Part shown: positions 18,838 through 49,645 of the stretch, one piece after another | Layout: every line of letters starts with the position of its first letter | Numbering within the stretch: the first letter of the stretch is position 1 | Translations under genes and position numbers: made by a program | The notes under the pieces: model-generated | Seen by the model: the letters and a program-made list of their open reading frames with translations, nothing else | Told to the model about the DNA's origin: nothing | Databases searched by the model: none | Assembly: GCF_003334815.1 (NCBI RefSeq) | Contig: NZ_QOWO01000003.1 | Length of the DNA: 64,000 bases | Strand: one strand, 5' to 3' | Origin: Escherichia coli | GTDB taxonomy: Bacteria; Pseudomonadota; Gammaproteobacteria; Enterobacterales; Enterobacteriaceae

Positions 18838-19335
18838 TGTGAATGCCTGATGCGACGCTTGCCGCGTCTTATCAGGCCTACGCCAGACAGCGCAATAGCC
18901 TGATTTAGCGTGATTTTGTAGGTCGGATAAGGCGTTTATGCCGCATCCGACATCAACGCCTGATGCGACGCTTAACGCGTCTTATCAGGCCTACGCCAGA
19001 CAGCGCAATAGCCTGATTTAGCGTGATTTTGTAGGTCGGATAAGGCGTTTACGCCGCATCCGACATCAACGCCTGATGCGACGCTTGCCGCGTCTTATCA
19101 GGCCTACGCCAGACAGCGCAATAGCCTGATTTAGCGTGATTTTGTAGGTCGGATAAGGCGTTTATGCCGCATCCGACATCAACGCCTGATGCGACGCTTA
19201 ACGCGTCTTATCAGGCCTACGCCAGACAGCGCAATAGCCTGATTTAGCGTGATTTTGTAGGTCGGATAAGGCGTTTACGCCGCATCCGACATCAATGCCT
19301 GATGCGACGCTTGCCGCGTCTTATCAGGCCTATCT
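18838..19335. repeat. Tandem array of about five 113-bp units, each containing paired REP palindromes
   Basis: GCCTGATGCGACGCTT(G/A)... recurs at about 18845, 18958, 19071, 19184 and 19297 (period 113 bp); units near-identical with a few substitutions. Confidence 0.85.
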
Positions 19336-27510: not shown

Positions 27511-29420
27511 TTAATTTGGGGTTACGATATTCACCCACAAATCGAAATTATCCAGACAGGCGATAATTTCTTCCAGTTTCGCGCCATTGCCAATAATTTT
27601 GGCTTTCTTCGCTTTTACCAGATCCGCCATTTTGGCTTGTCCGGTCAGCACGGCGTGCAGATCTTCACGGCTGATGTAGAAAGAGGCGTCGGCTTGCGGT
27701 TGCAGCGTTTTCCGGTAGTTAAGCACGCTATCGTTCAGCGTCAGGTTGAGGTTATCGCCGTTGCTCATATTGAAGTTCAGGCTGATATTTTTACCCGCAG
27801 CTTTCGCGCTATCGAGGCGAACGGCCATAAAGTCGAACAGCATTTCGACCGACATCCCGCGAATGGTGTCCGGGGAACCGGTGGTGCCGTGGCTGAACTT
27901 ATGCACCCCTTCGCGCAGCTCTTTCGCGCCGGTCAGGTAGAAACCGCGCCATGTGGCGGACTCGGCCTGATAGCCCAGCTGTTCAAAGTTATTCGCTTGC
28001 AGATTCTTCGCGACCTGGTCACCCGGGTTGGCGGCAATCACCTGTTTCAGCAGTTCTGCCGACCAGCGGTAATCACCTTGCTTGTTCGCTTCTTGCGCCA
28101 GGTTGATGACACGGGCAGAACCGCCCAGCGCCTGCACGTAACGTTTACCCATCTCCACCTGACCATACGGATGCAGGTTAGCCGGGTTACCGTCGTAATA
28201 GCCAAGATAGAAGTTATACACCGCGCGGGCGTTGTGGCTGACAGAACCGTAATAGCCGCGGCTGGCCCAGTTATTGGCAAGTGCAGGCGGCAGCTTAATC
28301 ATGTCGCCGATTTCATTCATGGTGTAGCCCTGGTTCGCCAGGTGTGCGGCATAAACAGCACTTCCGCGTCGTTACCCCACATATCCAGCGTTTCGTTCAG
28401 ATACTCGGTCCACTTGCTGGTGTCGCGGGTTTTCGCGCCGCGCAGAGTGTAGAAGTTGTGCAGGGTATGCGTGGCGTTCTCGGCGGTACACAGGGCTTTC
28501 AGGGCCGGAATATAGAAGTGCATTTCGGCTGGCGCTTCGCTACCTGGGGTCATCAGGAAGTCAAACTCCAGGCCGTCGATAATCATCTTCTCGCCAGTTC
28601 TGACGATAGTTTTCGTCGGTGCAATAATGCTCGGGTCGCCCGTTGCCAGCGTCACGCCAAGGCCATTACCCACATTGCCTTGCGCGTTGTGCGGCAGTAA
28701 CAGACCGTAAGAGTAGAGCGCACGGCGGCTCATGATGTTACCCGCCAGCACGTTTTCGCTGATGGCTTCGTCCATAAAGCCTGCAGGGGCAATCACCTGA
28801 ACTTTGCCGGATTTAACATCGGCTTCAGAGATAATGCCTTTCACGCCACCATAGTGGTCGGTGTGGCTGTGAGTGTAGATAACGGCAACAATCGGTTTTT
28901 GCGGACGATGCTGGAAGTAAAGGTCAAGTGCGGCTTTTGCGGCAGGCGGCGTCACCAGCGGGTCGATAACAATAATGCCTTTCTCGCCCTCAACGAACGT
29001 AATGTTAGAGATATCCTGGCCGCGCACCTGATACATTTTATCGGTGACTTTGAACAGGCCAGAAATACCGTTGATTTGCGACTGACGCCACAGGCTGGGG
29101 TTTACGGTTTCCGGCGCTGCGGCATTAATATCAAATTTGTAATCGTCCGCGCGGTAGTAAACTTTACCGTTCGCATCACGCAGAATACCTTCATCCAGCA
29201 GCGGGGCGATAAATCCACGCTGGGCATCGTCAAAATCCTGACGATCGCTAAACGGTAATGATTTGGCGTAATTCTGATTAACCTGTTGGGTATATTGAGT
29301 GGCGGCTTTCGCTTCCTCTTTCGCGTTAGCGGTATTTACCATCATGCCGCTGGCGGCAGTTAACGCAATAACAATCCTGCTCAAACGGAATAACCGAGAG
29401 TTATTCATATAAATCTCCAT
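27511..29420 (-). pseudogene. yjcS: SdsA1-like alkyl sulfatase (MBL fold plus SCP2 domain), disrupted by a frame shift
   Basis: ORF track splits it into 28317..29420 (367 aa, ends ...[16 protein letters not shown]) and 27511..28320 (continues ...[12 protein letters not shown]... in another frame); junction near 28335..28340. Confidence 0.7.
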
Positions 29421-36678: not shown

Positions 36679-37008
36679 ATGAAACGCTTTCCGCTATTTC
36701 TTTTATTCACCCTGCTCACGCTGTCCACCGTTCCGGCCCAGGCCGATATTATCGACGACACCATTGGCAATATTCAGCAGGCGATTAATGACGCTTATAA
36801 CCCTGACCGTGGGCGAGACTATGAAGATTCGCGCGACGACGGCTGGCAGCGTGAAGTGAGCGACGATCGGCGCAGACAATATGACGACCGCCGCCGCCAG
36901 TTTGAAGATCGCCGCAGGCAGCTGGACGATCGCCAGCGCCAGCTTGATCAGGAGCGTCGGCAACTGGAGGATGAAGAGCGGAGAATGGAAGATGAGTATG
37001 GGCGATGA
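36679..37008 (+). CDS. yjdP: Secreted protein with an R/D/E/Q-rich repeat tail, unknown function
   Basis: ORF track 109 aa; signal peptide then repeated DDRRRQ(Y/F/L)(D/E) units. Confidence 0.8.
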   Translation: MKRFPLFLLFTLLTLSTVPAQADIIDDTIGNIQQAINDAYNPDRGRDYEDSRDDGWQREVSDDRRRQYDDRRRQFEDRRRQLDDRQRQLDQERRQLEDEERRMEDEYGR

Positions 37009-37154: not shown

Positions 37155-37913
37155 TCACGCCACCCCAATCTCCATCCCATCAAACCCCACCTCAAACCCT
37201 GACGGTAGTGCGTTTTCCATCAGCCACGCATCAAACTGGTGGCTGATATGGGTCAGAATCACCCGTGGCGAGCGGATAACCTGATTCAGCGCAAGCACGG
37301 TATTTAAATCACAGTGATTACGCGGTGCATCCGCGCGCGGCGGGTGACTGCAATCCATCACCATTACCTGCGGCTGATTATTGCGTAAAAATTTCAGCGT
37401 TTTTTCCGGCAAGCCTGCGGTGTCAGACAGCCACGCCACCCGGCTGTGTGCCGTTTCCAGCAGATAACCGAAGGTCAGTTTTGAGTGGTTGAGCGGCAGG
37501 GGCGTGACCTGTAACCCCTGCAAATCAAACACCACAAACGGTTCCACCGTGTGGCTGAAATCAAGCAGGCCCGGATGTTTAAACAGATCGTCGCAGCCCT
37601 GTTCATCCGGCGGGCCGTAAACCGGGATCGGATCGCCAACGCCCCAGCGCAGCGGAAACAGCCCCTGGACGTGATCCATATGATAATGCGTCAGCAAAAA
37701 CTGCTGGAACGATCCGGGCGACCAGCGATCGGCGAGATCGTGCAGCCCGGCGTCGATCAGGGTGATTGCGTCGTTAAACTTCACTACGCCGCTGCACGGT
37801 TGGCGGCGATACTGCGGCGAGCGCCGCGCTCTGGCGCAGGCCGCACACTCGCAGCCCCATGCCGGAACGCCCTGTGCGCCGCCGGTGCCGGTGAGCGTGA
37901 GGGTCAGGCTCAT
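37155..37913 (-). CDS. phnP: PhnP, phosphodiesterase (MBL fold) of the C-P lyase pathway
   Basis: ORF track 252 aa; HxHxDH motif (LTHYHMDH). Confidence 0.93.
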
Positions 37914-37914
37914 G

Positions 37915-38349
37915 TTACAGCGCCTTGGTGAAGCGGAAGTGGCTCTGCTCGTAGCCTTCGCGCAGATAGAAACGGTGCGCGTCGTGGCGCTTCACGTTGG
38001 TCGAAAGTTCGGTCATTTCGGCCCCGGCCTGGCGGGCTTCTTCTTCTGCCCACGCCAGTAACTTACTGCCGACGTTCAGACCGCGCGCCTGCGGCATTAC
38101 CACCAACTCCTGAATTTCGCCGATCCAGTTGACATGATGCAGATGAAACTGCAAATGCAGGCCGATCATGCCGACAACTTCGCCATCAAGCAGCGCCAGA
38201 TGGTAGCGCATGTTTGGGTCGCGCAGATTGGCGTTAAAACCCACGCGAAACGCGTGGTGGTCAAACTCCGCCTGTTTTAGCTCACAAATCAGCGCGTAAA
38301 CCGCGTCGGTGTCGTACTGCGTGGCCGGGCGAAGCTCACAAGCAGGCAT
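37915..38349 (-). CDS. phnO: PhnO, aminoalkylphosphonate N-acetyltransferase
   Basis: ORF track 144 aa. Confidence 0.93.
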
Positions 38350-38893
38350 GGTGTTTCTCCTTCTGATGGATCAGCGTCAGCAGCGTGTCGACCGACTGGC
38401 GCAGGCTGCCGTCATTGTTGAGCGTATGGCAATCCTGTGGAGTATAGCGGGCGGCGCGCGCCAGGCGGGCGTTAATTTCACTGGCGTTTTCACGGCCACG
38501 GTTTTCCAGGCGCTGGCGGAGGATCTCCGGCGAAACCTGTAAACAGACGGGCAGCAGCGCCGATTGATAGCGCGCCCGCGCCTGCGGCAGATGGGCGCGT
38601 GAGCCGTTGACCAGCACGTCGAATCCGGCGTGCAGCCAGAGATCAATCTCGACGCCGACGCCATAATACAGACCGTTAGCGTGCCAGCTTAAGGCCAACA
38701 GATTTTGCCCCGCGCGGGTAAAAAACTCCTGCTCGCTCAGGGCGATATGGTTTTCACTTCCGGCGCTGGCATCGCGCGTGATGTAGCGATGCGCCACCAG
38801 TAACTGAGTTTGTTCCCGCAGGCGGAGTTCCGCCAGCAGGCTGTCTTTCCCGGAGCCGGACGGCCCCATTAACCAAATCAGTTTTCCCATCAT
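38336..38893 (-). CDS. phnN: PhnN, ribose 1,5-bisphosphate phosphokinase
   Basis: ORF track 185 aa; P-loop GPSGSGKDS. Confidence 0.93.
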
Positions 38894-40029
38894 CAGAACA
38901 CCCTTTTACCCTGACGCCAGACGTGGTCGATATGAATATGATTGTCCTTGCGATGCGCCAGCACCAGGTCGGCGCGTTTGCCCTCGCCAATCACCCCGCG
39001 ATCCTGGAGATTAAGCGCCTGCGCTGGATTTTTAGTCACCAGCTTCACCGCCTGCGGCAGCGTAAAGCGGTTGCTCTGGTCATCGGCGACGCGAAATGCC
39101 GCATCGATCAGGCTGGCGGGGTAGTAGTCGGAAGAGAGGATATCCAGCAGGCCAAGCTGCGCCAGTTCACTGGCCGCCACGTTGCCGGAGTGCGAGCCGC
39201 CGCGCACAATATTCGGCGCGCCCATCAGCACGTTCATGCCATGCTTGCGCGAGGCTTCCGCCGCTTCGAACGTGGTGGGAAATTCGGCGATCACGCTGCC
39301 AAGCTGGTGAGATTCAGCAACGTGGGCGTGGGTGGCGTCATCGTGGCTGGCAAGCGCAATTTTTCGCGCGCGGCACAGGGCGGCGATGGATTCGCGATTC
39401 GGCTGCGACCAGCGTGCGGCGAGCGCCAGTTGCTCTTCTTCGTACTGCTGCATCTGCGCATCAGTGAGGGAGTATTTGCCCTGATAATATTCGCGATACT
39501 TCTCGCGGTTGGCGAACTGGCGCTGGCCCGGCGAGTGGTCCATCAGCGACACCAGCGTCACCGGCTCGCGCTGCACCAGTTTTTCAAACAGCGGCAGCGT
39601 GGTGTGATGCGGCAGTTCGCAGCGCAGATGCAGACGGTGCTCGGCGCGGTTGACGCCGCGTTTCTGCGTCTCTTCGATGGCGTTGATCATCTTCTCCAGA
39701 TTCTCCAGCCGATCGCCGCCGTCGCGCACGTCGCCAATTGCCACGGCATCCAGTACGGTGGTGATGCCGCTCGCCACCATCAGCGCGTCGTGGCTGCTCA
39801 TCGCCGAGTGGGCAGGCCAGTCAACTTTCGGGCGCGGGGTGAAGAATTTATCCAGATTATCGGTATGCAGCTCAATCAGCCCCGGCAGCAGCCAGCCGCC
39901 TTCGCCGTCCATCGCCTCCGGCAGGCGGCTCTGGCTTTCGGCAAAGGCGCGGATTTCGCCGTTCTGCACCTCCAGCGAACCGCTTACCACCTCGTTTTCC
40001 AGCACCAGCTTAACGTTATTGATAATCAT
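38893..40029 (-). CDS. phnM: PhnM, amidohydrolase-family diphosphatase
   Basis: ORF track 378 aa. Confidence 0.93.
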
Positions 40030-40706
40030 GAAGAGGCTCCCATTGGGTGCAGGCGGTCGGCGACGTCATTACGTACAGCTTCGTCATGGAAGATGCCTAC
40101 GATGGCTGCGCCACGGGTTTTGGCTTCGCGAATCAGTTCCACCACCGCGGCGCTGTTTTTGGCGTCCAGCGAGGCGGTAGGTTCGTCAAGCAGCAGAATG
40201 GGGTAGTCGACGATAAAGCCGCGGGCGATGTTGACGCGCTGCTGTTCGCCACCGGAAAATGTCGATGGTGCCAGGTGCCACAGGCGTTCCGGCACGTTCA
40301 GGCGGGTGAGAAGACGCGCGGCTTTAGCGGCGCAGGCTTCACGCGGAACGCCGGTATCGAGCAGCGGCTGCATCACCACTTCCAGTGCTGAGATACGCGG
40401 GATGACGCGCAGAAACTGGCTCACCCAGCCGACGGTGGTTTTGCGGATTTCCACCACTTTGCGCGCTGGCGCGGTGACCAGGTCTACCCACTCGTCACCG
40501 TGTTTGATCTGGATTTGACCTTCGTCGGGCAGATAGTTGGCGTACAGCGAGCGTAGCAGAGTTGATTTGCCGCTGCCGGAATGGCCGTGGAGCACCACGC
40601 ATTCGCCCGCGTTGACGGTGAGCGAGGCGCGATTGAGGACGGGCAGGCGCACGCCGTTTTGCTGGTGCAGGATGAAGGTTTTACTGACGTTTTGTACGTT
40701 AATCAT
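40026..40706 (-). CDS. phnL: PhnL, ABC-type ATPase component of C-P lyase
   Basis: ORF track 264 aa trimmed to [11 protein letters not shown] (226 aa); Walker [10 protein letters not shown]. Confidence 0.9.
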
Positions 40707-40727
40707 TTTTCGCCTCGTGGTTCGGGT

Positions 40728-40811
<84 letters not shown>

Positions 40812-40816
40812 CCGGC

Positions 40817-41575
40817 TCAATTCTGCAAAACCGATGACACCAGCAGCTGTGTATACGGATGATGCGGGTCGTCGAGCACGCGGTCGGTTAACCCACTCTC
40901 CACCACTTGCCCCTGCTTCATCACCAGCAAACGGTCCGCCAGCAGGCGGGCGACGCCTAAATCATGGGTGACAATCACCACCGCGAGGTTCAGCTCCACC
41001 ACCAGGCCGCGCAGCAGGTCGAGCAGGCGGGCCTGCACCGACACATCCAGCCCGCCGGTCGGTTCATCCATAAACACCAGCTTCGGATGCGTCACCAGGT
41101 TGCGGGCAATCTGCAAACGCTGCTGCATACCGCCGGAAAAGGTGGTCGGCAGGTCGTCGATCCGGTTGGCGGGAATCTCCACCTCTTCCAGCCACTTCTG
41201 CGCGGTGGCACGAATATCGCCGTAATGACGTGCCCCGGTCGCCATCAGCCGCTCGCCGATATTGCCGCCTGCCGACACCTGGCGGCGCAGGCCGTCGAGT
41301 GGATGCTGATGCACCACGCCCCATTCGGTACGCAGCAGGCGACGGCGGTCGGCCTCGCTCATTGCATACAGCGAACGGTTCTCGTAGTGAATTTCCCCCT
41401 GCTGCGGCGTCAGGCGCGCGGAGATCGACTTCAGCAGCGTGGTCTTCCCGGAGCCGGATTCCCCGACAATGCCCAGCACTTCCCCCGGCCATAAATCAAA
41501 AGAGACATCGCTAAAGCCTTTGCCCGGCGCGTAAAGGTGGGTCAGGTTATTGACCGAAAGTAACGGTTGATTCAT
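40817..41575 (-). CDS. phnK: PhnK, ABC-type ATPase component of C-P lyase
   Basis: ORF track 262 aa trimmed to [11 protein letters not shown] (252 aa); Walker [10 protein letters not shown]. Confidence 0.9.
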
Positions 41576-42417
41576 TGGTTTTTTGCCTCGCTCTGTTGGC
41601 GGCAATAATCGGTATCGGAGCAGACAAACATGCGGTTTCCGGCGTCATCCAGCACCACTTCATCAAGATAGCTGTGGGTCGATCCGCAGATGGCGCATGG
41701 CTCATCCCACTGCTGAACGGTGAACGGGTGATCGTCGAAATCGAGACTTTCCACGCGGGTAAACGGCGGCACCGCATAGATGCGCTTCTCGCGCCCCGCG
41801 CCGAACAGTTGCAGGGCGGGCATCATGTCCATTTTTGGGTTATCGAATTTCGGGATCGGCGACGGGTCCATCACGTAGCGCCCATTTACCTTCACCGGAT
41901 AGGCGTAGGTGGTGGCGATATGACCGAAGCGGGCGATATCTTCATACAGTTTCACCTGCATCACGCCGTACTCTTCCAGCGCGTGCATGGTGCGGGTTTC
42001 CGTTTCGCGCGGCTCGATAAAGCGCAGCGGCTCGGGGATTGGCACCTGGAAGATAATTATCTGATCTTCGGTCAGCGGCGTTTCGGGGATGCGGTGACGC
42101 GTCTGGATAACCGTCGCATCGTCCGTACGTTCCGTGGTGTTTACCCCGGTCACGCGCTTGAAGAAGTTGCGAATCGACACGGCGTTGGTGGTGTCATCCG
42201 CGCCCTGGTCAATCACCTTCAGCACGTCGCTTTCGCCAATCACGCTGGCGGTAAGCTGAATGCCGCCGGTTCCCCAGCCGTACGGCATCGGCATCTCGCG
42301 CCCGCCAAACGGCACCTGATAACCGGGGATCGCCACCGCTTTTAAGATGGCGCGGCGGATCATGCGTTTGGTCTGCTCGTCGAGGTAGGCAAAGTTGTAG
42401 CCGCTCAGATTAGCCAT
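41572..42417 (-). CDS. phnJ: PhnJ, C-P lyase catalytic subunit (radical SAM-like 4Fe-4S)
   Basis: ORF track 325 aa trimmed to MANLSGYNFAYLDEQ (281 aa); C-terminal CxxCxxxxxC cysteines. Confidence 0.92.
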   Translation of the reverse strand: MANLSGYNFAYLDEQTKRMIRRAILKAVAIPGYQVPFGGREMPMPYGWGTGGIQLTASVIGESDVLKVIDQGADDTTNAVSIRNFFKRVTGVNTTERTDDATVIQTRHRIPETPLTEDQIIIFQVPIPEPLRFIEPRETETRTMHALEEYGVMQVKLYEDIARFGHIATTYAYPVKVNGRYVMDPSPIPKFDNPKMDMMPALQLFGAGREKRIYAVPPFTRVESLDFDDHPFTVQQWDEPCAICGSTHSYLDEVVLDDAGNRMFVCSDTDYCRQQSEAKNQ

Positions 42418-42421
42418 GGTT

Positions 42422-43474
42422 CTACTCCTGTTGCAGACGTTTGAGTAGCTCCAGTTCGGCCTGGAAATCGACGTAGTGGGGGAGTTTGAGGTGTGAGACA
42501 AAGCCTGCGGCTTCGACGTTGTCGGCATGTGCCAGCACGAACTCTTCATCCTGCGCCGGGCCTGTCGCGTGCTCGCCGTACTCCGGGGCTTGCAGAGCGC
42601 GGTCGACCAGCGCCATCGCCATCGCTTTGCGCTCGCTCATGCCGAACACCAGCCCGTAGCCGCGCGTGAAGTGCGGCGGCTCACCCGGCGGGTCGATAAA
42701 ACCGTTAACCATTTCACACTCAGTCATCAGCAGTTCGCCGACGTTCACCGCAAATCCCAGCTCTTCCGGCACAATCGACACGTCGATATAGCCGCTGCGG
42801 ATCTCGCCTGCGAACGGGTGATTGCGCCCGTAACCGCGTTGGGTGGAGTAGGCCAGCGCCAGCAAATAGCCTTCGTCGCCGCGCATCAACTGCTGCAAAC
42901 GGGAGGAGCGTGAGCAGGGGTAAACCGGCGGCGTGCGGGTGATGTCATCCGGCTGTGCGCCGCTATCCTCTTCAAACTTCGCCAGCCCCTGACGCGCCAG
43001 CAGGCTGAAAACGTGCGGCGACGGCTGCTGTTCGCTGTCGGCGGTGGTCAGCGTCGGCGCTTCGCCGTTTGCCAGCAGGGTAAAATCGAGCAGGCGATGG
43101 GTGTAGTCGTAGGTTGGGCCAAGCAGCTGGCCGCCGGGAATGTCTTTATAAACGGCGGAGATACGGCGTTCGAGACGCATCCCGGTGGTGTCGAGCGGCT
43201 CGCTTACCGCCAGCTTCGCCAACGTGGTGCGGTAGGCGCGCAGCAGGAAAATCGCTTCAACGTTATCGCCGCTGGCCTGTTTCAGCGCCAGCGCCGCCAG
43301 TTCGCGGTCGGCAATGCCGCCTTCGGTCATCACGCGATCTACCGCGAGGTTAAGCTGCTGTTCAATCTGGGCGACGCTCAGTTCGGGCAAATCGGTATCG
43401 CCTCGGCGTCGGCTCTCTTGCAGGGCGTGGGCGGCGTCGATCGCCTTCTCGCCCCCTTTCACGGCAACGTACAT
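42422..43474 (-). CDS. phnI: PhnI, ribosyl-transferase subunit of C-P lyase
   Basis: ORF track 390 aa trimmed to [18 protein letters not shown]; start overlaps the phnH stop (TGATG). Confidence 0.88.
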   Translation of the reverse strand: MYVAVKGGEKAIDAAHALQESRRRGDTDLPELSVAQIEQQLNLAVDRVMTEGGIADRELAALALKQASGDNVEAIFLLRAYRTTLAKLAVSEPLDTTGMRLERRISAVYKDIPGGQLLGPTYDYTHRLLDFTLLANGEAPTLTTADSEQQPSPHVFSLLARQGLAKFEEDSGAQPDDITRTPPVYPCSRSSRLQQLMRGDEGYLLALAYSTQRGYGRNHPFAGEIRSGYIDVSIVPEELGFAVNVGELLMTECEMVNGFIDPPGEPPHFTRGYGLVFGMSERKAMAMALVDRALQAPEYGEHATGPAQDEEFVLAHADNVEAAGFVSHLKLPHYVDFQAELELLKRLQQE

Positions 43475-44058
43475 CAGCACACCTCCACATGAGTGGTTCG
43501 CGGAATAGCCAGCAGGCGCTCGCCACAGGTCAGGATCAGGTCGATGCCGAGCGGGAACGGATGCGGGCGCTCGGTGAGTTCGTGCAGAATGCACTCCGGC
43601 AGCTGCGGAGCGATCATTCGTTCTTCGGCAATACCCGCACCAGTAAGGCGCAACATGCGTCCGCCGCTCAGGCTGGCGACCTGTAAAATCAGCGTCGCAC
43701 CCGCTTCCGGCGCAACGGCGGTGCCGGTGGAAAGGGCGTTGAGCTGTTCGCTGGAAATCGCCTCATCCGTCACCGCGAAGGTCGCCTGTTCCGGCTGGCT
43801 GACCAGCGGCGCGTTGGTATGAAAACGCAGGCTCTGGTTGACGATATCGTTATTTAATGGGGTAGAAAGCCACACCGGCGTGTCGTTATCGGCCAGCGTC
43901 AGCAGCACGCTGGTGGTGGCGATATTCAGCGGTTGCCAGCCGCGTTTGAGCTGATGCAGGGCGACAATCACGCCCGGCTCGCTCATGGCCTTTAACAGGC
44001 GACGAAAACTGTGCTGGGCATCCTGCACGGGAAGCATAAAAGCGGTTTCCAGGGTCAT
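43474..44058 (-). CDS. phnH: PhnH, C-P lyase core subunit
   Basis: ORF track 194 aa. Confidence 0.93.
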
Positions 44059-44507
44059 GCGTTGTCTCCGCGAACCATCGTAAAGAAGTCGACCCGGCTG
44101 GCGTTCACTTCGGCCTGGCGTGCGGCAATGCGTGCCATACGGTCAGCGTCCAGCGGGGCAATAAGGGTTTCTGATAAGTTTTGAAAGTGGCGAGATTGCT
44201 GCATCAGCGCGTCAATCAGCGCGCAGCGTTCGGCGTGCTGTTTATCACGCCCCTGCACCCAGCTGTAGCCGAGCGTGCCGTCAGTCAGGCGCACGGCGGC
44301 GCGGGTCAGCGTGGCGTCGCCGGCAAAAAAACGTTCGCCGGTGCCGCCCATCCGCGCCTGAATCTGTACCAGGCCAGTTTCAGCGGCGCGGATCACCTCA
44401 TAGTCGGCGGTGATGTTTAGCGCGTTCAGGCGTGCTGCCAGTTCAGCCGGTTGGCTGTGCGCCAGCACGGACATCCAGTGCTGGCGGGTCGCGGTATCTG
44501 CGTGCAT
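44055..44507 (-). CDS. phnG: PhnG, C-P lyase core subunit
   Basis: ORF track 150 aa. Confidence 0.93.
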
Positions 44508-45233
44508 TCAGTGCTCCATAGTGAATTCAATCATGTCGGCGCGCGTCAGGCTGACGGAGTACTCCGCCGGGCTGCTTTCACCGTCACGGTGGTTAAGGGT
44601 GCGCACGCACAGCAGCGGCGACATATTCGGGATTTCAAGACGCTGGCACTCTTTGGCCTGGGCGCGGCGGGCGCTGATCCGCGTCTGGCTGCGGCGCAGC
44701 GCAATTCCGGTTTGCTCGCGCAGAAAATCGTGCAGCGAGCCGCTGTCGAAGCGTTGCAGCGTCGGCCAGAGGGTGAGGTCCGCGAAGTAGTGGTCGATTA
44801 AACAGAGCGCGACGCCGTTGACACGACGCAGGGTGCGCAGGTGGATGACGTTCTCCCCCTCGGTAATCCCCAGTGCGTCAGCGACGTGGCCGGACGCGGG
44901 GCGCAATACCGAAAGCAGTTTTTCGCTGGTGGGATGGCTGCCCTGATCCAGCAGATTCTGGCTAAAACGCGCCTGGGCGTTGAGCGGGTAATCGAACGGG
45001 CGCATCAGCACCAGCACGCCGACGCCCTGACGGCGCTGTACCCAGCCTTTTTCCACCAGTTGGTCGATGGCGCGGCGCAGGGTGTGGCGATTCACCTCAA
45101 AGCGCGCTGCCAGTTGCTGCTCGGCGGGAAGATAGTCGCCGCAGCGGTAGTGTTGACGAAGCTCCTGCTCAAGTTTTGCGGCTATCTCTTGATAGCGTGT
45201 TGGGTAGCTGGTCGGATGTGTAGACAAGTGCAT
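44508..45233 (-). CDS. phnF: PhnF, GntR-family repressor of the phn operon
   Basis: ORF track 244 aa; second in-frame Met (MHLSTHPTSYP) taken as start. Confidence 0.88.
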   Translation of the reverse strand: MHLSTHPTSYPTRYQEIAAKLEQELRQHYRCGDYLPAEQQLAARFEVNRHTLRRAIDQLVEKGWVQRRQGVGVLVLMRPFDYPLNAQARFSQNLLDQGSHPTSEKLLSVLRPASGHVADALGITEGENVIHLRTLRRVNGVALCLIDHYFADLTLWPTLQRFDSGSLHDFLREQTGIALRRSQTRISARRAQAKECQRLEIPNMSPLLCVRTLNHRDGESSPAEYSVSLTRADMIEFTMEH

Positions 45234-45253
45234 AGATATCAATGCCTCGCTTA

Positions 45254-46104
45254 TCAGATAAAGTGCTTACGCAACCGTTGAGAGAGGAAATCCAGCAGGC
45301 TGACCGTGACGATGATAAGCACCATCAGGGCGCAGGTTTGTTGGAACTGGAAACCGCGAATCGCTTCCCACAGGGTGACGCCGATCCCGCCTGCGCCGAC
45401 CATGCCGACGACGGTCGCCGAGCGGACGTTGGATTCGAAGCGATAGAGGGAGTAGGAGATCAGCAGTGGCATCACCTGTGGCAGCACGCCGTAGAGGATC
45501 TCTTCGAGCTTGTTGGCACCGGTGGCGCGAATGCCTTCCACCGGGCCGGGTTCAATCGCTTCCACCGCTTCGGAAAGCAGCTTGGAGAGCACGCCGGTGG
45601 TGTGGATAAACAGCGCCAGCACGCCAGCACGCCAGCGAACGGGCCGAGGCCGACGGCGACCACGAACAGCATGGCGAAGACCATTTCGTTAATGGCGCGG
45701 CAGGCGTCCATCAGGCGGCGAACGGGCTGGTAAACCCACCACGGCACCAGGTTTTCGGCGCTCATCAGGCCAAAGGGGATGGAGAGAACCACCGCCAGCG
45801 CGGTGCCCCAGACGGCGATTTGCAGCGTGACGGCCATTTCGGTGAGGTAATCCTGCCACTGGCTGAAATCGGGCGGGAAGAAGTCGGCGGCGAACGTCGC
45901 CATGTTGCCGCCGTCTTTGATCAGCGTAAGCGGGGCCATTTCCGCGCCCTGCCACGAGACGACCAACACGGCGAGTACAACGGCCCAGCTCAGAAGCGAG
46001 AACCAGCTGCGCTTGGGTGGGGCGATGGTGATGGTTTGCATGTTTGGCTCCGGTCTGTAGGCCGGATAAGGTGCTTGCACCGCATCCGGCATCAACGCCT
46101 GCAC
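45254..46104 (-). pseudogene. phnE: PhnE, phosphonate ABC transporter permease, frameshifted at an 8-bp repeat (K-12 cryptic allele)
   Basis: ORF track splits it into 45472..46104 and 45254..45622 in different frames; three tandem GCCAGCAC-type copies at about 45614..45637. Confidence 0.9.
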
Positions 46105-46143
46105 ATTGTCGGATGCGACGCCGGGGCGTCTTATCCGACCTAC
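46056..46143. repeat. REP/BIME element in the phnE-phnD spacer
   Basis: Inverted pair TGTAGGCCGGATAAGGTGCTTGCACCGCATCCGGCA and GTCGGATGCGACGCCGGGGCGTCTTATCCGACCTAC. Confidence 0.8.
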
Positions 46144-46146
46144 GAT

Positions 46147-47163
46147 TTACTGCACCGCTTTACTCACCGAACTCATCGCGCTTAGCGCGTTGTTCAGGCG
46201 GTCCAGGTCATCCAGCTGCGCCTGAATCTCGGTGGTTTTTGCCAGCTTGTCCTGCTCATTCAGTCCTTTATTGCTTTTCACGCCCTGCATCTCTTTAAAC
46301 AGCGCGAGCTGGCGAATCGGCACCAGTTGCAGGTCGCTGGAAGCGCGGAATGGCGCCCAGCCCAGGCGTTCCAGCACCGCTTTTTCTTCCGGCGTTTTGC
46401 CGTAGTTCATAAAGAAGTCGTAGATCTTGTCTTTGGTGGTTTCGGAAAGATTCTTGCGCCAGACGATCGGATCGCCTGGGATCAGCGGCGACTTCCAGAT
46501 CACCTTCAGTTCTTTCAGCTTCTCTGGCGCGGAGGTTTTCAGCTTGTCGAGGTTTTCGGTGTTGTTGGTGGCAACATCCACCTGCTTGTTGGCGACGGCC
46601 AGCGCGTTGGTTTCATGCCCGGCGTTGACGGTGCGCTTGAAGTCGCTGGCGGAGATATTGTTTTTGGCGAAGACGTAGTAGCCGGGGACGAGGAAGCCAG
46701 AGGTGGAGTTAGGATCGCCATTGCCAAAGGTGAGATCTTTCCGCTTCGCCAGCAGATCGTTCAGGTTGTTGATCGGACTGTCTTTGTTGACGATCAACAC
46801 GCTCCAGTAACCCGGCGATCCATCCGCCGCGACCGTCTGGGCGAAGACCTGGCCATTGGCGCGATCCACCGCTTCCATCGCCGACAGATTGCCGTACCAG
46901 GCGATATCCACTTTATTGAAGCGCATCCCCTGGATAATGCCCGCGTAGTCCGGGGCAAAGAAGGCGTTGACCTTCACGCCCAGCTTCTTCTCCATATCCT
47001 GCAAGAACGGCGTCCATTGCGGTTTCAGGTTTTGCTGTGATTCCGTTGAAATAATGCCGAAATTCAACGCCTTTTCCTGCTCTTCGGCGTGCGCCGGGCT
47101 TAACAGGGTGCTGAGGCTGAACATGCTGGTGAAGGCCAGCGAGGCAATTATCTTAGCGTTCAT
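46147..47163 (-). CDS. phnD: PhnD, periplasmic phosphonate-binding protein
   Basis: ORF track 338 aa; signal peptide. Confidence 0.95.
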   Translation of the reverse strand: MNAKIIASLAFTSMFSLSTLLSPAHAEEQEKALNFGIISTESQQNLKPQWTPFLQDMEKKLGVKVNAFFAPDYAGIIQGMRFNKVDIAWYGNLSAMEAVDRANGQVFAQTVAADGSPGYWSVLIVNKDSPINNLNDLLAKRKDLTFGNGDPNSTSGFLVPGYYVFAKNNISASDFKRTVNAGHETNALAVANKQVDVATNNTENLDKLKTSAPEKLKELKVIWKSPLIPGDPIVWRKNLSETTKDKIYDFFMNYGKTPEEKAVLERLGWAPFRASSDLQLVPIRQLALFKEMQGVKSNKGLNEQDKLAKTTEIQAQLDDLDRLNNALSAMSSVSKAVQ

Positions 47164-47187
47164 TCGTTTTCCTCAATGATGGGGATG

Positions 47188-47976
47188 TCAGGCAGCTTTC
47201 GCGTTCTCTTCGACGCGGTTAATGCTGCGGTAGAGATGGTCAAAACGTTCGTTATCAAACTGTTGGCTGCTGCCGTCGTAGAAGACGTGCCCCTGGCGCA
47301 GGGCGACGATGCGTTCGCAGTAGCGCAGGGCGTAATCCACCTGATGCAGCGTGACGACCACGGTGATGCCGTCGTTCTGGTTGATGTCGCGCAGGGTGTC
47401 CATCACGATGCGCGCTGATTCTGGGTCCAGCGAGGCGATGGGTTCATCGGCCAGAATCACTTTCGCCTGCTGCATCAGCGCACGGGCAATCGCCACACGT
47501 TGCTGCTGGCCGCCGGAGAGGGTGGAAACGCGCTGATGGGCAAAATGCACCATGCCAACGCGGGTCAGCGCCTGTAACGCGCGCTGTTTCTGCTCGCCGG
47601 TGAACCAGCTAAAACAGGTGCGCCAGAACGGCGTGCTGCCGAGCGCGCCAATCAGCACGTTCTCCAGTACGCTCAGGCGGTTCACCAGGTTGAATTGTTG
47701 GAATATGTAGCCGGTATGGGCGCGGCTTTTGCGGATATCGCGGGCCAGGCGGCCTTCGCGCTGGACTGTGCGGCCCAGCAGCTCGATATGGCTACCGACA
47801 GATTTATCGCCGGTAATCAAACCGCTTAAGTGACGTAAAAGGGTGGATTTTCCGGAACCCGACGGCCCAAGCAGAGCCACCATTTCACCGTGATGAATGT
47901 TCAGATCAACCGCATGCAGCGCCTGATGCTGATTGAAGGTTTTGGCGAGCTTCTCGACACGGATAATCGTTTGCAT
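47188..47976 (-). CDS. phnC: PhnC, phosphonate ABC transporter ATPase
   Basis: ORF track 262 aa; Walker [10 protein letters not shown]. Confidence 0.95.
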
Positions 47977-48016
47977 GATGCAGCCTCCCTAAAAAAGTGG
48001 CTCCATCGTGGCGGAT

Positions 48017-48056
48017 TATTGTGACGATTTGGTTAATTAAAAGTGACTAACAGATG
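48017..48056 (-). promoter_or_regulatory. Pho box (PhoB binding repeats) of the phnC promoter
   Basis: Minus strand CTGTTAGTCAC-TTTTAATTAAC-CAAATCGTCAC direct repeats upstream of phnC; the phn operon is known to be PhoB-dependent. Confidence 0.55.
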
Positions 48057-48108
48057 AAGAGTTAACGGGAATTCGATGACAGTGCGGGAGGGCGGGCCTC
48101 CCGGCGGG

Positions 48109-48552
48109 TTATTGCGTTGGTTGTTGTTTGACGACATTAATCATCCACGGTACGCCAAATTTATCGGTGACTTTGCCAAAGCCATGCGCCCAGAAAGTTT
48201 CCTGCCAGGCCATTTCGATTTTTCCGTTAGCGGCAAGATTGTCAAACCAGCGTTTTCCTTCTTCGACCTGTTGCGAATCGAGCACCAGCGTAAAGCCGGA
48301 GTAGCTGGCTTTTCCTGACGGCATGGCATCGCTCATCATGATGTCGCTTCCGGCAATGCGCACATTGGCGTGGGCGATGGCGGTATCGGGAAATTGCATT
48401 CCGGAAGGGCAGTTCTCGGCGCTGTCCTGCGCTGATTTTGGCATTTCGCCGAAGCTGATTTTATAGAGCAGTTCCGCGCCCAACGTACGTTGATAATAGG
48501 CAATCGCGTCGGAACAGTTACCGGCAAAAGAGAGGTAGGGACTTAACGGCAT
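48109..48552 (-). CDS. phnB: PhnB, glyoxalase/bleomycin-resistance-fold protein
   Basis: ORF track 147 aa. Confidence 0.9.
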   Translation of the reverse strand: MPLSPYLSFAGNCSDAIAYYQRTLGAELLYKISFGEMPKSAQDSAENCPSGMQFPDTAIAHANVRIAGSDIMMSDAMPSGKASYSGFTLVLDSQQVEEGKRWFDNLAANGKIEMAWQETFWAHGFGKVTDKFGVPWMINVVKQQPTQ

Positions 48553-48616
48553 GATGGTGACCTCAGTTAAGAGAAGCCAGTTAAGTGTAGTTCGAAATTT
48601 ATACAGATGAGAGGCG

Positions 48617-48900
<284 letters not shown>

Positions 48901-48909
48901 ACAATACAA

Positions 48910-49245
48910 TCAGTTCTTTTTCACAAACTCAGATTTCAGTTTCATCGGACCAAAACCGTCGATTTTGCAATCGATGTTATGGTCGCCTTCAACCAGGCGG
49001 ATGTTTTTCACTTTGGTGCCAATTTTCAGCATCGAAGAGCTACCTTTCACCTTCAGATCTTTAATGATGGTAACGCTGTCGCCGTCAGCCAGCAGATTGC
49101 CGTTAGCATCTTTAACGATCAGCTCGTCGCTTTCCTGTGCAGGTTCTGCGTCGTTCCATTCGTAGGCACATTCCGGGCAGATGTACATGCCGTTATCTTC
49201 GTAGGTGTATTCGGAGTTGCATTTTGGGCAGTGTGGTAATGACAT
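48910..49245 (-). CDS. phnA: PhnA-type zinc-ribbon protein
   Basis: ORF track 160 aa trimmed to [30 protein letters not shown] (111 aa); CxxC...CxxC. Confidence 0.9.
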
Positions 49246-49645
49246 GTGGATTTCCTCAAAAGTCAGCAGGGCAAAAGCGCCAAAAAACGGCAGATTGCCG
49301 AAAAAGGCCGCAATTATACACAAAATCCCTGAGTTTGTCGGGGGTACTGCTGATTTTAGACGACGATCGTTTTCATTTGAAAGGAAACGCAAAAAGAAAA
49401 TAATCTTTTTGCCTCTATTTATTATTTAAGATAATGTTAATGCTCTACTTGTTCTTTTTTTAATTCACATGATATTTTTATCTTTCTGACGTTTTAAACG
49501 TATCAGAAGACGTTATTTATTCTGATAAAAAACAACACACTAAATATAAAATTATTTCTTGCAGTAATTATAAAAGCCGAAAACAGAACTCAAAAACAAT
49601 CTGGCTAAATAAAATAACAAAATTTGCTTTAAGGAAGAATTTTCT

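Follow-up and report, generated by a model that had tools for sequence, protein, structure and literature searches.

SSR contingency (i.e. phase-variable) loci are well known in Haemophilus influenzae and Neisseria, where slippage toggles translation. Closer to the locus studied here, Iqbal et al. 2004 reportedly described reversible switching of phnE in Escherichia coli K-12, to judge from the title of that paper and from the papers that cite it.

Later work (PMC6469041, PMC3463581, PMC7566553) traces the cryptic phnE of K-12 to Makino et al. 1991 and Iqbal et al. 2004. The gene contains an 8-bp unit in three copies instead of two (PMC7566553), and three-copy strains are reportedly incapable of phosphonate use before the loss of one unit (PMC3463581, PMC6469041, PMC7566553). 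Stasi et al. described a revertant with an 8-bp deletion (5'-GCTGGCGT) at position 407-414 of the phnE ORF, after which Pi is transported by PhnCDE (PMC6469041). High-frequency slippage between the direct repeats of phnE is described in a further paper (PMC4759930). The alleles have been named phn(EcoK0), phn(EcoK+) and phn(EcoB) (PMC3463581).

The DNA analysed here is a 64-kb stretch of E. coli sequence (64,000 nt), referred to below as the window. The lesion in its phnE is the published cryptic allele of E. coli K-12 and is thus already known. As an earlier note made from the sequence had supposed, the gene, the unit, the position and the copy number are all those published (PMC6469041, PMC7566553). 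The triplication itself is a textbook lesion re-identified, and there is nothing new in it.

Compared with phn(EcoK0) of K-12, the window allele is alike in gene, unit, position (nt 406-428), possession of three copies and premature stop. It differs in having T at position 45551, the basR SNP of K-12 at 56377 is lacking, and the window has changes of its own in phnM, phnI and yjcS. What the window contains is the equivalent of the K-12 allele in wild strains, and not K-12 itself. Two-copy phnE, i.e. phn(EcoB) of E. coli B and phn(EcoK+) of K-12 revertants, is identical apart from one 8-bp unit and provides an intact 259-aa permease (WP_001193500.1), whereas the window allele is frameshifted.

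Several traits of a contingency locus are present in phnE. The repeat is intragenic, its unit length is not divisible by 3, and a change in copy number toggles the frame; moreover the copy number differs among close strains and has changed recurrently and independently. An intragenic repeat, a unit that is not a multiple of 3 and copy variation between relatives are common to phnE and the SSR loci of Haemophilus influenzae and Neisseria. By contrast, the phnE array is very short (2-4 units, rarely 7-10) and has a long unit of 8 bp. Furthermore phnE is a metabolic transporter gene, whereas the Haemophilus influenzae and Neisseria loci are surface or restriction-modification genes, and unlike those loci phnE is fixed in the OFF state throughout a large clade, in which ON members are few.

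Our main reading, to which we assign a probability of roughly 0.93, is that the third GCTGGCGT copy frameshifts phnE and the loss of one unit restores it, the allele having been inherited in a large natural clade related to K-12.

The repeat tract and the phnE reading frame

In the phnCDEFGHIJKLMNOP operon (14 genes) phnE is flanked by phnD and phnF, in gene-for-gene agreement with the annotation of MG1655. The features of the locus are as follows.

45254..46041, minus strand: phnE pseudogene, 788 nt (780 nt / 259 aa if there were two repeat copies)
45614..45636, minus strand: 8-bp tandem repeat tract, phnE nt 406-428 (Tandem Repeats Finder)
45472..46041, minus strand: frame as read from the phnE start codon, of 189 aa and ended early by the stop at 45472..45474
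45254..45613, minus strand: C-terminal half of phnE, in a frame that differs from that of the start codon
46147..47163 and 47188..47976, minus strand: phnD and phnC respectively, upstream of phnE and intact, encoding the two remaining subunits of the PhnCDE transporter
37155..45233, minus strand: phnF to phnP, downstream of phnE, comprising the regulator, C-P lyase and accessory genes
48021..48053, minus strand: Pho-box-like direct repeats (ctgttagtcac ttttaattaac caaatcgtcac), upstream of phnC

Tandem Repeats Finder reports a period of 8, 2.9 copies and 100% matches at 45614..45636, with the plus-strand consensus CGCCAGCA. The coding strand of the tract reads GCTGGCGT GCTGGCGT GCTGGCG, i.e. 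23 nt that are perfectly periodic. The tract thus has three GCTGGCGT copies where functional alleles have two, and its unit and position agree with the published description (PMC6469041). The earlier note placed the repeat at 45600-45640, a range within which the tract indeed falls, and considered the third copy to be diverged. The latter does not hold, as in the best register the 23 bases are periodic without mismatch; the third unit GCCAGCGA seems diverged because the register GCCAGCAC was used.

The 23-mer of the tract has a single occurrence in the 64-kb window, where it forms the only tandem array with a period <15. No match was found in 100 dinucleotide-preserving shuffles with up to 2 mismatches allowed. 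A scan of 100,044 species-representative genomes with the 23-mer gave 45 matches, all in unrelated and mostly G+C-rich taxa, and none of these 45 was near a phnE homologue by tblastn.

The ATG of phnE is at 46041, and the three-copy frame reaches a stop at codon 190 (45472..45474). Deletion of one unit in silico generates an intact phnE ORF of 259 aa that ends at 45254. One copy or four would leave phnE out of frame, and five would place it in frame. The change of frame noticed earlier is confirmed by the overlap at the tract of two minus-strand ORFs (45472..46104 and 45254..45622), the second being a mechanical ORF of 122 aa that starts at a GTG within the repeat. Two GCTGGCGT copies encode ..F-A-G-V-L-A-L-F.. 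in the middle of the protein, and the restored PhnE of the window is identical to the restored PhnE of K-12.

With the PhnE equivalog model TIGR01097 (NCBIfam; cutoff 216.7 bits) the restored ORF reaches 311.5 bits, its residues 16-258 aligning to profile positions 8-251 of 252. For the 189-aa product the score is 127.7 bits, i.e. under the cutoff of 216.7, and the match covers profile positions 8-133 of 252 only. Since the match ends at position 133, this product is without the C-terminal half, and by our own reading the EAA loop would fall in the lost part. Judged by its sequence, the phnE locus of the window is a pseudogene of the PhnE family and not a working member. The locus is likewise marked as a pseudogene or 'frameshifted' by the MG1655 and PGAP annotation.

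PhnE is the membrane permease of the PhnCDE ABC importer for phosphonate/phosphate. We infer that slippage caused the gain in copy number, the third GCTGGCGT copy being likely to have arisen by slipped-strand mispairing in replication. The extra 8 nt shift the frame, so that translation ends after 189 aa with loss of the C-terminal half of the protein. With phosphonate uptake lost, the otherwise intact C-P lyase operon would be silent, i.e. 'cryptic'. Because the lesion is the gain of a repeat unit, loss of a unit by slippage would restore the exact wild-type ORF, and a one-step return of function is possible. The ON state would be selected by phosphonate as the sole source of P, or by Pi starvation. 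By analogy the window strain probably behaves like K-12, i.e. it would be Phn- and revertible. The earlier note stated that Phn+ reversion occurs by loss of one unit, and this is documented for K-12 (PMC6469041, PMC4759930, PMC3463581). A sequenced laboratory revertant provides a further instance; this is CP032679, a derivative of MG1655 from Brazil that has 2 copies and an intact PhnE, and that differs from MG1655 by 0 SNPs over 22.4 kb.

Two other explanations need to be considered. Short repeats can in principle be miscounted, so that the third unit might be an artefact of sequencing or assembly. However, the identical 81-nt context recurs in 995 complete genomes that are independent of one another, those of the MG1655 reference and EMG2 among them, and the allele has been confirmed by Sanger and genome sequencing in the literature (PMC6469041, PMC7566553); we regard an artefact as having a negligible probability. 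Alternatively the three-copy phnE could still be functional, either by ribosomal frameshifting or as two half-proteins of 189 aa and 122 aa, and the ORF over the C-terminal half does start within the tract. Yet this is contradicted by the published Phn- phenotype of three-copy strains (PMC3463581, PMC6469041, PMC7566553), the data can be explained without a slippery site, and we think retained function very improbable.

The remaining phn ORFs of the window are all open, save for a stop near the end of phnI. This results from the change at 42424, which is PhnI Q351*; the stop is at codon 351 of 354, so that the last 4 residues are gone. The site of the stop sits 7 nt upstream of the phnJ start. 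A second change private to the window, at 39108, is PhnM L308I. Both PhnI Q351* and PhnM L308I could impair C-P lyase function even after reversion of phnE; as phnI is 4 codons short, restoration of phnE might give incomplete growth on phosphonates. The direct repeats at 48021..48053 resemble a PhoB box, and presumably mark a PhoB-dependent promoter of the operon. We also note that the intergenic space between phnD and phnE (~46045-46140) is filled by REP/BIME-like palindromic elements (gtaggccggataagg...cttatccgacctac).

The window compared with K-12

The window and MG1655 are 99.95% identical and have the same gene order. Nevertheless, equating the window with MG1655 4277190-4341189 failed on base-by-base comparison, and was rejected on alignment differences and diagnostic SNPs. 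Over the 64 kb there are ~14 differences in unique sequence, together with an 88-bp deletion in yjcS. The window also has one fewer 113-bp unit near 19.0-19.3 kb, and three fewer 100-bp units near 48.9 kb.

Comparison with EMG2 (wild-type K-12) over 40001..64000 of the window shows the two to be colinear, with differences at exactly 42424, 45551, 56377 and 60641. Two of these sites are informative.

45551, no strand: synonymous SNP in phnE; T in the window, C in MG1655, CP032679 and EMG2

The other is 56377 in basR, which is C in the window and T in MG1655, CP032679 and EMG2. At 45551 and 56377 each of the 15 natural isolates sampled, the outgroup T16R among them, has the window allele. Because the window allele is shared in this way, the alternative bases are derived SNPs private to K-12, and the two positions are useful as diagnostic sites for K-12. 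Note that T at 56377 gives the K-12-specific BasR WP_000697926.1, while the wild isolates sampled all have WP_000697915.1. Private to the window are 42424 (phnI), 39108 (phnM), 60641 and the yjcS deletion.

An origin of the window from E. coli K-12 would account for the 99.95% identity and shared gene order with MG1655, and for the colinearity with EMG2 over 24 kb. Against this, the derived alleles of MG1655, CP032679 and EMG2 at 45551 and 56377 are absent from the window, and the ~14 unique-sequence differences and the 88-bp yjcS deletion separate it from MG1655. The junction of that deletion was found in 0 of 5,426 complete E. coli genomes with a 52-nt query at a strict E-value. Moreover the dog isolate D9 is as near as K-12 or nearer; over 22,412 shared positions the window differs from D9 at 3, and from MG1655, ETEC1732 and 300709 at 4 each. 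Derivation from K-12 is consequently very improbable, and these comparisons identify the source of the window as a close wild relative of K-12.

It had also been proposed that the triplication marks the window as of K-12 lineage. This must be withdrawn, since ~1,000 complete genomes have three copies and the window is without the two K-12-private SNPs. About 1/5 of complete E. coli genomes have the three-copy phnE, and most of these are wild, so that it is unusable as a K-12 marker.

Some other features of the window that differ from MG1655 may be recorded here. The deletion in yjcS (~27511-29408, minus strand) removes 88 bp relative to MG1655 between GCCAGGTG direct repeats, with the junction at 28337-28344. 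It shifts the frame of this alkyl sulfatase gene, giving a stop at codon 364 of ~661. The gap between gltP and yjcO (18845-19332) contains 4.3 copies of a 113-bp unit with REP-like palindromes, of 96% identity, and MG1655 has one more. The gap between yjdN and yjdM (48616-48895) holds an array of a 100-bp REP-like unit in 2.8 copies; EMG2 has the same number and MG1655 three more. This array is hypervariable between strains, because the yjdM offsets in other strains step by ~100 bp.

Copy number of the repeat in complete E. coli genomes

phnE was found in 5,397 records, corresponding to 5,395 of the 5,426 complete E. coli genomes. The exact 81-nt three-copy context occurs in 995 records, and 13 more have 1-3 mismatches (i.e. 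~995-1,008 of 5,397). Two copies were found in ~3,100 records with a short query, and in 31 of the 31 lower-ranked rows of a longer one. The share of complete genomes is thus ~18.5% with three copies and ~81% with two. Four copies are present in 12 genomes, and seven and ten copies in one genome each.

Records that are >=99% identical over 851 nt number 1,013, against 995-1,008 with three copies; nearly all three-copy genomes thus have one phnE haplotype. Among them ~550-640 have the wild T at 45551 and ~275-455 have one mismatch (K-12 type), a division estimated from rank positions in a query spanning 45551. The three-copy isolates come from humans, ducks, chickens, poultry, pigs, cattle, deer, dogs, sewage or wastewater, and river water, with genome sizes of 4.4-5.4 Mb. 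The 13 records with 1-3 mismatches (95-99% identity to the 81-nt context) could represent three copies on phnE haplotypes other than this one, i.e. further independent 2->3 events.

On the exact haplotype of the window, two copies occur in ETEC1732/1734 and Z217-2/-4 (four genomes from two natural clones), in which PhnE is intact (WP_001193500.1). The phnE of ETEC1732 and Z217-2 is 100% identical to that of the window after removal of one unit. The next-nearest two-copy alleles differ from the window haplotype at 6 of 843 sites.

The four-copy genomes are VR50, EH10-18-47, EF7-18-51, FDAARGOS_1248, YZ22PE244, LR-71-1, SW071611/19/3, 200112, TB4019 and TB4328. Their phnE is annotated as 'frameshifted' in 9 of the 9 records examined. 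The 22.4-kb flanking sequences fall into three groups. Group A comprises the window, K-12, D9, 300709, VR50, SW071611, TB4019, FDAARGOS_1248 and 200112; group B comprises Z1323CEC0016 (3 copies) and EH10-18-47 (4 copies); group C comprises LF3-1 (3 copies) with EF7-18-51, YZ22PE244 and LR-71-1 (4 copies). Strains with 3 and with 4 copies are found in each of the three groups. Parsimony on a UPGMA tree of 19 sequences requires at least 8 changes in copy number, which is a count of events and not a rate because the tree sample was chosen for copy number. The tract appears to have reached 4 copies on at least 4 occasions, and two natural clones probably either returned to 2 copies or stayed there. 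Strains that are just 2-10 SNPs apart over 22.4 kb have 2, 3 or 4 copies, and within this clade of close K-12 relatives the tract is probably still slipping.

One- and five-copy alleles were sought using queries with asymmetric flanks; with symmetric flanks, 3-copy genomes tie at 100% because they can be aligned in two pieces. On these flanks the asymmetric-flank queries of complete E. coli genomes detected neither a 1-copy nor an in-frame 5-copy allele.

The largest arrays are those of 2013C-4974 (human, USA) with 10 copies (L066 1530-1608) and OkiPb01713 (bovine, Japan) with 7 copies (L067 1530-1584). Both alleles are out of frame and flagged as 'frameshifted', and in each case collapse to two copies generates a 259-aa ORF. 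The two differ from one another at 1 of 3,004 flanking positions, whereas either differs from the window at 86 of 3,004 (2.9%). From this divergence the 7- and 10-copy alleles are assigned to an independent expansion on another phnE haplotype. The other phn genes of OkiPb01713 are intact. The possibility that it is clonal with 2-copy sibling isolates was ruled out, because its phn proteins are of different alleles from theirs.

None of the expanded alleles observed is in frame. The four-, seven- and ten-copy alleles involve the same tract as the window and are likewise out of frame and annotated as 'frameshifted', but they are further expanded, and at least 2 unit losses would be needed to reach ON.

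Maintained switch or decay

We consider it reasonably probable that the phnE tract is naturally hypervariable across E. coli, OFF in a large wild clade and with independent expansions elsewhere. If true, either PhnCDE uptake of phosphonate/phosphate is phase-variable in wild E. coli, or there is a repeat-driven loss of the C-P lyase pathway. No population-level description of the phnE repeat variation was found in the searchable literature. As the tract is polymorphic (2, 3, 4, 7 and 10 copies), PhnCDE-dependent phenotypes may vary between wild lineages related to K-12, and switch within them. The phenotypes concerned are the use of phosphonate and phosphate, and possibly those related to fosfomycin (PMC6469041, PMC7566553).

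The three-copy allele might instead be a loss of function by slippage that was neutral or favoured in the gut and became fixed once in the clade, with decay of phn thereafter and no maintained switch. The single phnE haplotype of nearly all three-copy genomes is consistent with this, as is the near fixation of OFF on that haplotype (~1,000 three-copy genomes, compared with two natural two-copy clones). The 12 genomes with 4 copies have moved further from ON, and the window has its own PhnI Q351*. Of the natural strains sampled, 5 of 13 that are OFF and 0 of 4 that are ON have additional phn lesions, a difference that is not significant, the strains being few and selected by copy number. On the other side, the majority of OFF strains, K-12 and the window included, have all their other phn genes open, and some of the 'frameshifts' may be assembly errors. 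Easy, reversible switching has also been reported in the laboratory, according to the title of Iqbal 2004 and to two further papers (PMC6469041, PMC4759930). We hold fixation followed by decay to be a tenable explanation, with somewhat less than an even chance of being correct. The laboratory reports of reversion, together with the natural variation in copy number, are in favour of reading the tract as a switch.

The lesions themselves are varied. A frameshift in phnI is common to Z1323CEC0016 and EH10-18-47 (isolates from a Korean chicken and a Laotian human), and there are stops in phnJ of YZ22PE244 and in phnC of LF3-1. LR-71-1 is the most heavily altered strain; an IS1 insertion truncates phnP and the als-rpiB region is gone, phnM has a frameshift, and there is a second stop in phnE. 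The occurrence of extra phn lesions in wild OFF strains hints at decay, in what is a small and biased sample.

A separate observation concerns yjdP, annotated as a 'DDRRRQL repeat protein', which contains imperfect 21-bp in-frame repeats at 36862-36944. In ETEC1732, Z1323CEC0016 and EH10-18-47 the annotation shows a stop within yjdP.
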